A DNA stretch of 64,000 bases from assembly GCF_988243305.1 (NCBI RefSeq), contig NZ_OZ547136.1; one strand, 5' to 3'. The notes beneath the pieces are model-generated. The model did not search any database and was not told where the DNA came from. It saw nothing but the letters and a program-made list of their open reading frames with translations. Positions 6,341 through 11,841 of the stretch are shown one piece after another (the first letter of the stretch is position 1; each line of letters starts with the position of its first letter). The translations under genes were made by a program, and so were the position numbers.

Positions 6341-6659
6341 TACCTGTGGACTTACTTGGCTTTAATCCCGGAGTATTGCCAGGAGTATCTTTATTATCGC
6401 GTCGGCGTTGATCCGGTTTTCCTGTTGACTTAGCAATTGGTTTTGGACCTGGTTTTAGACCCATGATAGTTATCCTTCGAGATGTAAGAGGAATGCCCTC
6501 AACATTGGTATATTCTATACTGAGAAATTTTTCAATGGGAATGTTCAACGGCCGAATGATTAACTCGATATTGTGAGCAATGTCTTTTTTTGGCACAGAG
6601 CGAACCGTTAGATTGCGCGTATTTTTATGGAAGGAGATCATCCAATAACGGTTATTCAC
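6336..6659 (-). CDS. Hypothetical protein, Lys/Pro/Gly-rich C-terminus; last gene of the ParB/PAPS-reductase operon
   Basis: 107-aa ORF; N-terminal peptide MISFHKNT shared with the ORF starting at 11417; no recognisable domain. Confidence 0.35.
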   Translation of the reverse strand: MNNRYWMISFHKNTRNLTVRSVPKKDIAHNIELIIRPLNIPIEKFLSIEYTNVEGIPLTSRRITIMGLKPGPKPIAKSTGKPDQRRRDNKDTPGNTPGLKPSKSTGK

Positions 6660-6723
6660 CGTTCTCCTTTATGGTAATACGAACCTGTTTTTTTAATATA
6701 TAGAAAAATTACTCCGACATGTT

Positions 6724-7368
6724 TTATCTTTTTGAAATCAGGACATTTACCAACTCACTTAAAACTCTCTTTTGTTCTTCATCCTGAAGATATTGAATCC
6801 GGAATTTAATCTCTTCTGCAACCCGCCTTGTATCGGACTCATTAAGTATTTTTGTTATTCGCTGTCTCTGATGTTCAGGCTGGTCTTCCATATTTCGTAA
6901 AACCAGATGAAATAATATATCATAAAGTGCGCAATGCCATGAATAACCATCATTGGTTAGAATAAGCTCCCAAACCCGCTCCTGTTCGGCAATAAGCTGC
7001 AGAACAAAGGATTCAACCTGTTCTGATTGTCCGGGGACAACCCGGTATAGCGGCGCAATCACAGCAAAAAACAGTTCATTTAGCCAGGATTCCGCCTCTT
7101 TCTCGCTCCTGAAAGATGGACAGTTCTGTATTCTTCGTTCGTATTCACGGGTAACCTGCTCCGGAATATCCTCCGGCGGTGTCAGCCACTTATTCCTGAG
7201 CAATATACTGGTTGACGGATGGCAGCAGGCTATTTCAGCAATAATTTCACGTAATGCCTCCGGGCTGAATTTCTTCAGCTGATTGTAGTGCTCCCGGGTA
7301 AAACCATGATCATCGCATAAAAGTTGCCATGTCATTGATATACTGTTTGCCATTCCTTTCTTCATCAT
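6724..7368 (-). CDS. Hypothetical protein (214 aa), operon partner of ParB-like/PAPS-reductase-like genes
   Basis: Intact ORF 20 bp downstream of preceding gene on same strand; no recognised domain. Confidence 0.5.
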   Translation of the reverse strand: MMKKGMANSISMTWQLLCDDHGFTREHYNQLKKFSPEALREIIAEIACCHPSTSILLRNKWLTPPEDIPEQVTREYERRIQNCPSFRSEKEAESWLNELFFAVIAPLYRVVPGQSEQVESFVLQLIAEQERVWELILTNDGYSWHCALYDILFHLVLRNMEDQPEHQRQRITKILNESDTRRVAEEIKFRIQYLQDEEQKRVLSELVNVLISKR

Positions 7369-7388
7369 TAATACCTGTTACCTGAATA

Positions 7389-7697
7389 TCAACAGACCGG
7401 TGTACCTTTTCTGAATACCTCCCCGGACGGACTGGCAATCCCCATTCGCCTCAGCGTGGCATCTGCAGCTTTCGCCACTTCGCTGATATCCAGCTTTTCA
7501 GGTAGCGGCGGGGACGATATCTGCGCCAGACAATAATTCCTGCGCAACAACAACCACTCCCGTTGTGCTTCTGTACATTCAACATTTCCCATAACAAAAA
7601 GCCAGCGGGCGGAAGCTCTGCGCCAGCAACCCGCAGCCTCCAGCTTCTGTGCAACCATGTCTTCCACGACTTCCGGGGTACTCTTTTTCCTGCTCAA
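7389..7697 (-). CDS. Hypothetical small protein (102 aa)
   Basis: ORF 39 bp downstream of ParB-like gene, same strand; no recognised domain. Confidence 0.45.
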   Translation of the reverse strand: MSRKKSTPEVVEDMVAQKLEAAGCWRRASARWLFVMGNVECTEAQREWLLLRRNYCLAQISSPPLPEKLDISEVAKAADATLRRMGIASPSGEVFRKGTPVC

Positions 7698-9592: not shown

Positions 9593-9732
9593 TTATTTTT
9601 ACTTTATGCAAAAGAAACCTGTTTATGCTTTCAACATATAGCAACAAACATTAAATGACGTTTAATTAGCCACTACTAAAATTGCTTACTTTCATCCTGA
9701 TGAACATATAAAACATATTACAAACATATTTA

Positions 9733-10440
9733 TCAATAAAGAATCTTTATTGATGATACTGGCACTGTAACAATCCCATTGAGAGAACGATTTATAACCA
9801 CCCACTCATGTGGTTCAACCAACCAGGAGTTTACATGTTTTGAATCAATAAAATCATGGCAATATAATATATCTGAAGCAGGTATATCCAACTCCAGTTT
9901 AACACGTCCGTGATATTCATCCGCATCATTAAAAGAATTCAATATATCCATCTCAAAAGAAATCACATCCTCCCCTCTTATCTCTGCTGTTTCTTTTAAC
10001 TCAGCAATCGTATCTGCATACCTGCCATTAAGTTTCCTGCCTAACTGGATAGTTGTGATTTTCTTTTCGTTGCAGCATCGCTGAGTATGTTCATATATAG
10101 CCATCACTTCCTGGCAAATACAATCAACTTCTATATCACTCAAAGAATTATATATGTCCATAACTTTTCTCTCATAATGCAAAAAACGATTAAATATACG
10201 ATAATGAGAGAGCAAATCAGAATTTGTTACTTTCGTTAAGAATAAAGTTAATAAAACATAACCTACCTGTTTACTACCATTAAACCCAATAAAATCACTT
10301 CTCACATCTCCTTTCAATCTACCAGTTCCGATACAACGAGCTAACAATTCACTCCTGACATTATATTTACCATTCATATTCACCATACTATTCGAAACAA
10401 CAGACGAACATCCAAAAGCGCTTAAACACTCCACAAACAA
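9733..10440 (-). CDS. Hypothetical protein (AT-rich gene, 235 aa)
   Basis: Long ORF in markedly AT-rich segment; no recognised domain; true start may be an internal Met. Confidence 0.45.
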   Translation of the reverse strand: MFVECLSAFGCSSVVSNSMVNMNGKYNVRSELLARCIGTGRLKGDVRSDFIGFNGSKQVGYVLLTLFLTKVTNSDLLSHYRIFNRFLHYERKVMDIYNSLSDIEVDCICQEVMAIYEHTQRCCNEKKITTIQLGRKLNGRYADTIAELKETAEIRGEDVISFEMDILNSFNDADEYHGRVKLELDIPASDILYCHDFIDSKHVNSWLVEPHEWVVINRSLNGIVTVPVSSIKILY

Positions 10441-10493
10441 ACTATCTCACCGAATAAATTGCAACACTCCCCTTACCCCACATCCTAAAGGCT

Positions 10494-11841
10494 TTATATA
10501 AAACAGTAAAAGTGAATCAGCTTAACAAATGCATCTTTCATTTGTTTTTGCTGCTGCTCGCTTCCATTCTGGTTGCGGACTTCACCATAGTGACACAACT
10601 GTTCTTCTGCCAGGATATGCCGGTTAAAAGCCTGCATGATGCCAGACACCTCCGTTTTCAGCTCACTGACCGTCATGTATTTTCCCCGCTGTTCATCCGG
10701 ACGGTTCAGGCGCTCAGCCAACAGCTGTAAGCGGGTCATGCCTTCGTTCCAGCCAGTCATCGCCTCTTCCGGGAGCGCACGACTCCTTGCACTCTTCTGC
10801 CAGTTATCCACCATTTCCTGAACGCGAGGATTGTCGGGGAAAAGTACCATCAGTTGCTGCAGCAATTGCACACTGCGTTGCAGGTTGTATGCCGGGGGGA
10901 ATTCTGTCAGTCGCGTTATCTGCTGACCGGAAAGGGTTATCCACTCTGACGCATGATTTAACAGTGTTCTGCTGAGCTGCATCATCTGGTCTGCTGAAAG
11001 CACATCCGGTGAGGGTGTCAGCAGCGCCCTGAGTTGCTGCTCCGCCGGTGATGGCTGTGTCAGAAACTGCCATCCCGGAATGGCCACGCAGACCGCCAGC
11101 AATGCCGTACAGACACCTGTAACAAACGTTTTCAGAAACGTGAGCGGGGATTTTTGAAGGAAGAGTGTGGGCTCTGTTTTTGTTTCAGAAACAACATACA
11201 CCAGACGGGAGTGCGGCAGGGTCTGATGTTCCTGCACATCCGGAGCTTCAAGCCTGAGTGCCTGCGCCAGTAGCGTTACCGGAGACGATACTTCCCCCTG
11301 CACAGGCTGGTTCTCCAGGCGGGTGATATATCCCTTCACCATGGCTTCCGGTAAAGCCACTTTACTGCTCTGTTTAAGTTCGTGCCAAGCCTGCGTATTT
11401 TCATGGAAGGAGATCACTCAGTGTCTTCAGGAATGTTTCGGTCTGATACAGCAGGGGCAGGTTGTCACGGTTATCCGGAGGCATGGCCCGGAGCGTTTTT
11501 TGCAGACGGTTGAACAGACCGGTAATAATTTCCAGCCGGGAGTGTGTATTCAGCGGCCACATCACTGACCAGTGATGCCGGGTCAGCGCAGCAATCAGAG
11601 CCAGCCCTTCATTCAGACCACTTAACCCTGTTGTATGCATCCGGGCAATGGTGTACCAGGATGCCGTCTGTAATTCCACGCCATTGTGTTCATACAGACG
11701 CAGGCAGAGCGTTTCCACGTAACGCCAGTCCACATCAGGGCGTGCCGGGTGGGTCAGTTTGCTGATTTCATCGCGCAGGGCAGCATAATCCGGTAATGAC
11801 CGGGGGTCACCACCGGTTTTCAGTTTCACTTCAGAAGTCAT
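10494..11841 (-). pseudogene. VasL-like type VI secretion accessory gene (ImpA_N domain plus TM and periplasmic region), split into two frames
   Basis: 146-aa ORF (11401-11841) with ImpA_N-like motif GDPRSLPDYAALRDEI...PDVDW; 307-aa ORF (10494-11417) with TM helix; frames differ, junction at 11401-11417; no other T6SS genes nearby. Confidence 0.5.

Follow-up and report, generated by a model that had tools for sequence, protein, structure and literature searches.

The locus raises the question of what two near-identical short sequences are doing 4.8 kb apart in the window (the whole 64-kb stretch of DNA that was analysed), one of them at the exact point where a type VI secretion accessory gene is broken. 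The repeat, GCGTATTTTYATGGAAGGAGATCAYYC, lies on the + strand in direct orientation at 6617-6643 (copy 1, GCGTATTTTTATGGAAGGAGATCATCC) and 11393-11419 (copy 2, GCGTATTTTCATGGAAGGAGATCACTC), with a start-to-start distance of 4,776 nt and 24 of 27 positions identical. The near-identical direct pair reported by a first-pass annotation of this DNA is therefore present, with coordinates that were 1 nt off for copy 1 and ~6 nt off for copy 2; the 26-mer given there has three mismatches. Comparison within the window reveals no similarity between the copies past 27 nt, and the 107-aa and 307-aa open reading frames (ORFs) associated with them, when searched for longer stretches of similarity, share none in DNA or protein.

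Taken alone, the pairwise repeat is statistically weak and within reach of chance. First-order Markov simulations of the window, with pairs counted in either orientation, yielded some pair with an equal or better local score in 8 of 60 sequences, and an expectation of zero for the repeat is valid for the pre-chosen pattern only. The similarity of the two copies is nevertheless real homology, because each copy separately matches the end of a known insertion sequence (IS), ISEc12.

ISEc12 is a 2.6-kb member of the IS21 family that encodes the transposase IstA and the AAA+ helper IstB and occurs in large numbers on the chromosomes and conjugative plasmids of E. coli. Its ends were fixed from two independent plasmid insertions in unrelated contexts, one next to RepA and the other next to TrbA. 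Both copies are 2,581 bp long, are flanked by duplications (GCCAGC and ACAGT) and share their sequence exactly from TGCGTATTTTCATGAAAGGAGATCACTCAATAAC... to ...GGTAATACGCA, so that the ends would read TGCGTATTTT.../...AATACGCA, with GAGATCnnnnAATAAC units spaced 23 bp in the left end. IS21 ends terminate in CA and carry repeat units, L1/L2 and R1/R2, at a spacing of 23 bp; IstA depends on two complete units (PMC10122671). ISEc12 generates 5-bp duplications and has disrupted tssM in ST131 clade C (PMC10711316).

A BLAST comparison of the full element with the window finds end matches only; the rest of ISEc12, including istA and istB, is absent from the window. ISEc12 positions 1-29 match 11392-11420 at 28 of 29 nucleotides (E 1.4e-7), positions 2-34 match 6617-6649 at 29 of 33, and positions 2549-2579, from the right end, match 6651-6681 at 27 of 31, although this right-arm match is weak alone (E 0.13). 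Very probably the two copies arose independently, each as a relic of an ISEc12-like left terminal inverted repeat. A chance resemblance with no common origin would accord with the simulations and with the abrupt end of the similarity at 27 nt, but its probability is close to nil: both copies independently match the outer end of ISEc12, a matching right end follows 1 nt after the left arm of copy 1, and, compared with related alleles, copy 2 is inserted sequence, which shows a 27-nt identity to relics in other islands, including the UTI89 relic variant. Since position 15 of the repeat is G in copy 2 and most chromosomal relics and A in the sampled ISEc12, the donor would be a close relative of the sampled element, not that exact one.

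The relics resemble ISEc12, whose ends run TG...CA and carry GAGATCnnnnAATAAC repeat units, in their terminal sequence and in host range (E. coli chromosomes and IncF plasmids for both). They differ in that, of the 2,581 bp, copy 2 keeps no more than 23 nt and copy 1 no more than 68 nt, with one repeat unit per end, G instead of A at position 15 and neither istA nor istB. Copy 2 retains part of L1 only and copy 1 retains L1 and R1 only, and the two repeat units per end needed by IstA are present at neither relic. With fewer than two units per end and no istA or istB in the window, both relics should be immobile.

On the minus strand, copy 1 encodes (W)MISFHKNT within the 107-aa ORF and copy 2 encodes (GTG)ISFHENT, which opens the 307-aa ORF. 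The first-pass annotation had described a common N-terminal peptide, MISFH(K/E)NT, at the start of both. The peptide is shared, as MISFHKNT and ISFHENT, but in copy 1 it lies inside the ORF, whose GTG start comes earlier, at 6659. It is a by-product of one IS end being translated twice, and the common orientation of the copies is incidental.

Copy 2 lies in a TagA/VasL-like type VI secretion accessory gene (10494..11841, minus strand) that has both Pfam domains of these TssA-like proteins, ImpA_N (1.1e-18) and a C-terminal VasL (5.2e-29). In the window the two domains are not in one polypeptide, as the ImpA_N half is a 146-aa ORF (11841..11401) and the VasL half a 307-aa ORF (11417..10494), both on the minus strand. 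The ImpA_N frame ends at a TGA (11403-11401). The VasL frame does not open before the GTG at 11417, which another TGA directly precedes. The break must therefore fall in 11401-11417, inside copy 2, just as had been noted for one of the copies. The 23 nt at 11392..11414 (TGCGTATTTTCATGGAAGGAGAT, + strand) appear to be the outermost part of the ISEc12-like left terminal repeat, present as a solo relic that begins with TG at 11392-11393; the right end is deleted, so no target duplication can be scored here.

Intact VasL-like alleles without copy 2, the empty sites that the first-pass annotation proposed to look for, exist and are common in E. coli. Alleles ~91-97% identical to the window read ...GAGTGACACACTGGCCCGGCAC... 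in frame (..LSDTLARHELKQ..), where the window reads ...GAGTGATCTCCTTCCATGAAAATACGCAGGCTTGGCAC..., and the site spans 407 nt in the empty alleles compared with 423 nt in the window type. In the alleles L005 and L006, AGTGTGT stands where the window has the 23 nt of copy 2. Copy 2 is thus a replacement of 7 nt by 23 nt, a net gain of 16 nt, and the resulting frameshift splits the gene into its ImpA_N and VasL ORFs. L005, L006 and L022 are stop-free over ~445 codons and hold both domains in a single ORF, and restoring the ancestral 7 nt to the window gene gives a single ORF of 443 aa. Elsewhere, intact 445-aa alleles are mis-annotated as three pseudogene fragments. The gene is found beside tssE, tssJ, tssG and tssF in other strains; in the window, where the IS relic shifts its frame, the RefSeq annotation shows none of these tss genes nearby.

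How the scar formed can be proposed from its endpoints. An ISEc12-like element would have inserted into the TagA/VasL-like gene, after which a transposase-independent deletion would have left the outermost 23 nt of its left end, also taking the target duplication and 7 nt of the gene. The putative deletion endpoints are CACTCA at repeat positions 24-29 and the same hexamer where it recurs in the gene, 12 nt downstream. This 6-nt microhomology, common to the ISEc12 repeat and the ancestral gene, is now found at 11415..11420 (+ strand) and probably marks where the deletion that removed the rest of the IS ended. We infer the order of insertion and deletion from the scar itself, because a chimeric query of flank and IS found no full ISEc12 at this site (>=80% coverage) among 5,426 complete E. 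coli genomes. Alternatively, copy 2 may have arisen by a direct templated patch or by insertion of an already shortened element.

An IS scar at the break also bears on what lies between the copies. The first-pass annotation had suggested that the repeats are recombination or insertion junctions of the 4.7-kb ParB-like/PAPS-reductase segment. On such a reading the copies would be att-like or target-duplication repeats, and the segment would have been inserted or recombined in the VasL-like gene. Direct orientation, the 4.8-kb spacing and the position of one copy exactly at the frame break are what such a reading would lead one to expect, and strains differ in the cargo carried at this variable defence-island hot spot. 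Yet the reading is highly improbable. The VasL-domain half would belong to the supposed insert but is colinear with the ImpA_N half in the empty-site alleles, which differ from the window by 16 nt net and not by the 4.7 kb whose absence had been predicted. In addition, copy 2 is nearer to ISEc12 (28/29) than to copy 1 (24/27), and the motif, being an IS end, recurs at thousands of sites. The insertion reading holds for copy 2 only, as the scar of an insertion at the frame break; no inserted or recombined 4.7-kb segment is delimited by the two copies.

The genes of the intervening segment agree with this. On the minus strand at 6724..10440, Pfam and RefSeq place a 214-aa hypothetical protein, a PerC-family regulator, an IbrB-like protein (ParB_N), an IbrA-like protein (PAPS reductase/DUF3440) and a 235-aa hypothetical protein. 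Pfam identifies PerC, ParB_N and PAPS_reduct/DUF3440 but no recombinase or integrase in 6336-11417, and the RefSeq annotation agrees. In E500002 the order is VasL-like gene ... ibrA, ibrB, PerC, the 214-aa gene and copy 1, with a Zorya II system inserted within the stretch from the VasL-like gene to copy 1. The first-pass annotation had considered a related strain with the same organisation and no repeats; E500002 corresponds in part, as it keeps the gene order and copy 1 and lacks copy 2. The genes at 6724..10440 are island cargo, not a unit bounded by two repeats.

Copy 1 is built differently from copy 2. Its left arm (6616..6649, + strand) resembles the ISEc12 left terminal repeat with the L1 unit only, and is abutted by a right arm (6651..6683, + strand) that resembles a degenerate ISEc12 right terminal repeat. 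Together they form a 68-nt mini-element (6616-6683) that has the 3' flank of the Shango defence operon on one side and the ibrAB/PerC module on the other. Its terminal bases are CG...AA in the window as opposed to TG...CA in ISEc12; in E500002 the element is more similar to ISEc12 and its last two bases are CA. A left-end unit abutting a right-end unit is the type of remnant that an interior deletion between inverted IS ends would leave. No target-site duplication is found at copy 1, as its flanks, GATTG and CCTGT, differ, which suggests that the IS took part in a rearrangement there.

The lack of a duplication is also what IS-IS recombination or an IS-mediated rearrangement would leave if the 4.7-kb segment had formerly lain between two direct ISEc12-like copies that, as in a composite transposon, moved or rearranged it as one unit and afterwards decayed. 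The equal orientation of the relics fits such a history, as does CRE1540, in which homology with the window downstream of the Shango helicase stops ~14 nt left of copy 1. However, a composite origin is very unlikely. The flanks of copy 2 are contiguous in the empty-site alleles, as expected for a simple insertion and not for a segment boundary; the segment order is maintained in a strain without copy 2; and the relics differ more from each other than copy 2 does from ISEc12, which argues for separate events. We did not count the CRE1540 break as evidence of an IS-mediated junction, since it does not fall at an IS end.

The mini-element supplies the start of the 107-aa hypothetical ORF (WP_001564033; 6336..6659, minus strand, RefSeq annotation). 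The left-arm relic covers codons 7-14 (MISFHKNT) and the right-arm relic contributes the Shine-Dalgarno sequence and the GTG start, so this 'hypothetical protein' takes its ribosome-binding site and start codon from IS-end DNA. The ORF has no Pfam, PADLOC or NCBIfam match, and its protein cluster consists only of Enterobacteriaceae 'hypothetical protein' entries. In CRE1540 its homologue is broken into ORFs of 66 aa and 47 aa, which are unannotated. The ORF is probably not a conserved or real gene.

Around the GTG start, AAGGAGA in one arm of copy 1 pairs with UCUCCUU in the other, and in theory the repeats could be functional cis-elements, for example a regulatory RNA hairpin masking the ribosome-binding site of the 107-aa ORF, a signal for programmed frameshifting in the VasL-like gene, or a protein-binding site that islands have conserved. 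In keeping with this, the mini-element of RM9872 folds strongly (-30 kcal/mol, z = -4.3), and a strongly folding mini-element is conserved in CP4-like islands between yfjI-like and GTPase genes, upstream of the latter. We nevertheless regard a functional element as extremely improbable. The hairpin in the window is weak (z = -1.66), copy 2 has no significant RNA fold, and a scan of the window and four loci gave no Rfam match at either copy. Moreover, a left and a right IS end account for the whole palindrome, the 107-aa ORF lacks conservation, and the empty-site alleles show the frameshift to be a lesion and not a conserved recoding site. Promoter and operator readings were weighed by eye and dropped once the IS end had been identified.

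The relics in the window are two of a large population. Repeats that bound an integrative element should be specific to its two junctions, and the first-pass annotation had itself counted a scattered motif against its reading; there are thousands of copies across E. coli genomes and plasmids. A 33-mer occurs at 4,173 places in 2,481 of the 5,426 complete E. coli genomes, and a 74-nt paired-end query at 10,887 places in 3,313 of them (median 3, maximum 17 per genome), as well as on 946 plasmids, 696 of which are conjugative. When one genome per species was scanned (100,044 genomes), the exact 22-mer turned up only on three very small MAG contigs, which probably consist of E. coli DNA, so the scan is uninformative on other species.

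Both copies are a known kind of IS scar and an ordinary finding, which implies no new mechanism. What follows is that the split TagA/VasL-like gene of a widespread E. coli island allele results from such a scar, and that short direct repeats in accessory regions should be compared with IS ends before they are called att sites. The split gene is also a further example of ISEc12-type elements inactivating type VI secretion genes of E. coli, as already documented for tssM in ST131 (PMC10711316).

Mini-elements of the same build as copy 1 are found in at least four other contexts, where they are 62-70 nt long and differ in sequence and length. Comparable are the remnants that nearly precise excision of IS10/Tn10 leaves behind, and MITE-like elements made up of an end pair. 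Like these, copy 1 and its relatives consist of two inverted IS ends with the interior deleted, and are palindromic and non-coding. At least one ISEc12 end pair, in SE15, keeps a clean 5-bp target duplication (CCAGG), and it is the only one showing a clean duplication. The end pairs, among them copy 1, the strongly folding version of the CP4-like islands and an IRL-IRL palindrome on a cdt plasmid, might be a MITE-like family still mobilised by IstA/IstB in trans, or recombination hot spots that help to exchange modules along the edges of defence and virulence islands, but we consider this unlikely. Each arm of an ISEc12 end pair has a single repeat unit where IstA requires two (PMC10122671), which makes deletion in place a more likely origin of the end pairs than MITE transposition.

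In CP4-like islands the motif was also considered as a pair of inverted repeats around the GTPase-Ag43 module, a reading that was dropped because EC05 has one copy only.

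The two stretches lie in direct orientation, 4,776 nt apart from start to start, and share 24 of 27 bases: copy 1 occupies 6617-6643 (+ strand; GCGTATTTTTATGGAAGGAGATCATCC) and copy 2 occupies 11393-11419 (+ strand; GCGTATTTTCATGGAAGGAGATCACTC). The near-identical repeat pair reported in the first-pass annotation is therefore present as claimed, with its coordinates shifted by 1 nt and ~6 nt. The shared minus-strand peptide it described, MISFH(K/E)NT, is likewise seen in the translations of both copies, as ...W-MISFHKNT within an annotated 107-aa ORF (GTG start at 6659) for copy 1 and as (GTG)ISFHENT at the head of a 307-aa VasL-domain ORF for copy 2. 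One copy had also been placed at the frame break of the TagA/VasL-like gene, a minus-strand type VI secretion accessory gene. Because the ImpA_N ORF (11841..11401) closes at a TGA at 11403-11401 and the VasL frame can be read from 11417 onwards only, the break indeed falls within copy 2. The argument that such a repeat is unlikely by chance in 64 kb fared less well, as an equal or better local-score pair arose in 8 of 60 Markov-simulated 64-kb sequences and the pair is not compelling statistically. The argument that the two copies are truly homologous comes from comparative data. The window is E. coli chromosomal DNA, and FDAARGOS_448 and many further strains match positions 5800-12300 at 100% identity.

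In two plasmids, annotated copies of ISEc12, an IS21-family insertion sequence (IS), have the motif upstream of istA at a constant spacing. The left neighbours of these copies are unrelated (RepA versus TrbA), and the sequence shared by the two contexts begins exactly at TGCGTATTTTCATGAAAGGAGATCACTCAATAAC and stops exactly after ...GTTACTCACCGATCTCCTTCACGGTAATACGCA. The comparison yields an element of 2,581 bp with TG...CA ends, flanking duplications GCCAGC and ACAGT, and GAGATCnnnnAATAAC units spaced 23 bp apart at the left end. IS21-family ends carry L1/L2 and R1/R2 repeat units, a terminal CA and 5-bp duplications, and integration requires two units (PMC10122671); the plasmid-derived ISEc12 ends show features described for this family (PMC10122671), and ISEc12 in tssM of ST131 is reported to have a 5-bp duplication (PMC10711316). 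When this ISEc12 was compared with the window by BLAST, the three leading matches paired ISEc12 1-29 with 11392-11420 (28/29; E 1.4e-7), 2-34 with 6617-6649 (29/33; E 0.008) and 2549-2579 with 6651-6681 (27/31; E 0.13); a single short interior hit, at chance level, scores as high as the last of these. With the whole element as query, no further ISEc12 parts were found in the window beyond the ends.

The TagA/VasL-like alleles of 2013C-3033 and E500002 (~91% identity) read ...CTGAGTGACACACTGGCCCGGCACGAAC... at the copy 2 site, whereas the window reads ...CTGAGTGATCTCCTTCCATGAAAATACGCAGGCTTGGCACGAAC... On the + strand, 23 nt in the window (TGCGTATTTTCATGGAAGGAGAT, the outer IS end) replace the 7 nt AGTGTGT of the alleles, a net gain of 16 nt. 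Intact alleles of the VasL-like gene without the scar do exist: a synthetic empty-site query recovered a 407-nt span in many genomes (closest 96.6% identity), compared with 423 nt in the window type, and three such alleles are stop-free over ~445 codons with ..FLKALSDTLARHELKQ.. at the site. Replacing the scar in silico by the ancestral bases gives one 443-aa window ORF with ImpA_N and VasL domains. Copy 2 is an IS scar and the source of the frameshift. The scar is followed by CACTCA, six bases common to ISEc12 positions 24-29 and the ancestral gene. In the simplest history, insertion of the IS behind ...AAGCC would have created a 5-bp duplication, and deletion between two CACTCA copies would have removed AGTGTGT together with the duplication and what remained of the IS. 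None of the 5,426 complete E. coli genomes searched carries a full ISEc12 there. Copy 2 shares an identical 27 nt with the relic variant in UTI89 and is nearer to ISEc12 than to copy 1; therefore, neither window copy derives from the other. RefSeq divides each of the ~445-aa empty-site ORFs (L005:7948-9288, L006:7955-9289 and L022:5300-6634, all minus strand) into three fragments, namely an ImpA_N pseudogene, a 'POTRA domain' or hypothetical pseudogene and a VasL pseudogene, which looks like an annotation artefact.

At copy 1, an ISEc12-like left-end unit (6616-6649) lies one base from an ISEc12-like right-end unit (6651-6683), and the whole is a 68-nt ISEc12-like end pair. In E500002 the element has decayed less and terminates in CA. 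No target duplication is found at copy 1 (flanks GATTG versus CCTGT), which has the 3' flank of a Shango operon on one side and the 214-aa/PerC/ibrB/ibrA genes on the other; CRE1540 shares this Shango flank from 6289 to ~6602 and differs beyond. The 107-aa ORF has its Shine-Dalgarno sequence and GTG start within the right-end relic and MISFHKNT within the left-end relic. It has no family match in Pfam, PADLOC or NCBIfam, and its CRE1540 counterpart is broken into two small ORFs. Elsewhere, an end pair akin to copy 1 in the YfjI-GTPase spacer forms a strong hairpin (z = -4.3). SE15 carries a 62-nt ISEc12 end pair (L025:1201-1264; left end of 34 nt identical to ISEc12, right end of 28 nt) with a perfect 5-bp duplication, CCAGG, on its flanks, upstream of a type II methyltransferase gene. 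The cdt plasmid pRHB40-C03_2 (L018:2501-2564) has, just downstream of cdtC, an IRL-IRL palindrome of two inverted ISEc12-like left ends rather than a left-right pair.

The motif is widespread in E. coli. A 33-mer spanning copy 1 is found at 4,173 places, mostly unannotated spacers, in 2,481 of 5,426 complete genomes (at most 7 in any one), and a 74-nt query for the paired version at 10,887 places in 3,313 of these genomes (median 3, maximum 17). Plasmids from Escherichia, Klebsiella, Salmonella and others were matched by the paired query too, 946 in all, and 696 are predicted to be conjugative. Contexts include the Ag43/Cah-DUF932 and YfjI-GTPase spacers of CP4-like islands. Scatter over thousands of places is by itself the outcome that the first-pass annotation had named as refuting its junction reading. 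Among 100,044 species-representative genomes, exact matches were confined to three gut MAG contigs of 1.2-1.8 kb bearing ISEc12-type end relics; labelled Bacillota, Collinsella and Lachnospiraceae (L013, L014 and L015), they are probably mis-binned E. coli DNA.

A 4.7-kb segment bounded by the repeats was considered and rejected, as it would include the VasL-domain half of the gene, which in empty-site alleles continues colinearly from the ImpA_N half. In E500002 the VasL-like gene is followed by a hypothetical gene, Zorya II, bactofilin, ibrA, ibrB, PerC, the 214-aa gene and copy 1, with copy 2 absent, and the segment encodes no recombinase detectable by Pfam. The proposal that the repeats are recombination or insertion junctions of the intervening segment is contradicted. 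Cargo after the VasL-like gene varies in other strains: E500002 has type II Zorya (zorA2, zorB2, zorE) and a bactofilin gene between the VasL-like gene and ibrA (L006:3517-6984, L012), which marks the interval as a cargo-swapping hot spot, and in 00-3076 (L023) an AAA-domain gene of 2.7 kb takes this place. In other strains, this variable defence-island hot spot adjoins a type VI secretion cluster (tssE, tssJ, tssG, tssF).

Both window copies are ordinary remnants of a known IS and mechanistically nothing new. As each end has one repeat unit and there is no transposase gene, the relics should be immobile; it is unlikely that ISEc12 end pairs are MITEs that can be mobilised, or recombination hot spots at the borders of island modules. 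For annotation, the scar explains the split TagA/VasL-like gene, the reality of the 107-aa ORF becomes doubtful, and intact alleles elsewhere prove to be mis-called as pseudogene fragments.

Other features were observed in the window. Three co-oriented genes at 464-6288 (+) are full-length matches to the Shango anti-phage system, SngA (TerB-N; 6e-100), SngB (BrxD-like ATPase; 9e-187) and SngC (DEAD/DEAH helicase; 4e-278), with only generic names in RefSeq. At 12235-14022 (-), a 595-aa NERD and UvrD-like helicase, a '3'-5' exonuclease' in RefSeq, matches the PADLOC candidate 'C3a187' (9e-139) and adjoins the TagA/VasL-like gene in all island variants examined. The same 18 nt occur at 7589-7606, within the PerC-like gene, and at 30559-30576, where they contribute to a small hairpin (30560-30604). 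Rfam places group II intron domains at 30713-32410 (+), namely D1-D4-3 (30713-30882, +), D1-D4-1 (30917-31001, +) and Intron_gpII (32339-32410, +). Just downstream, two adjacent inverted-repeat pairs (32474-32617 and 39854-40010; 54 nt at 87% and 40 nt at 87.5%) enclose ~7.2 kb and are candidate termini for a further mobile element. RNA-OUT, the IS10/Tn10 antisense RNA, matches at 59643-59712 (-; Rfam, 99.5 bits), which places an IS10 copy or remnant close to the window's right end. Finally, a tandem array of ~6-8 copies of the 9-nt unit GGAGAAGGT at 42665-42736 (+) would, if coding, specify a GEG-type peptide repeat.
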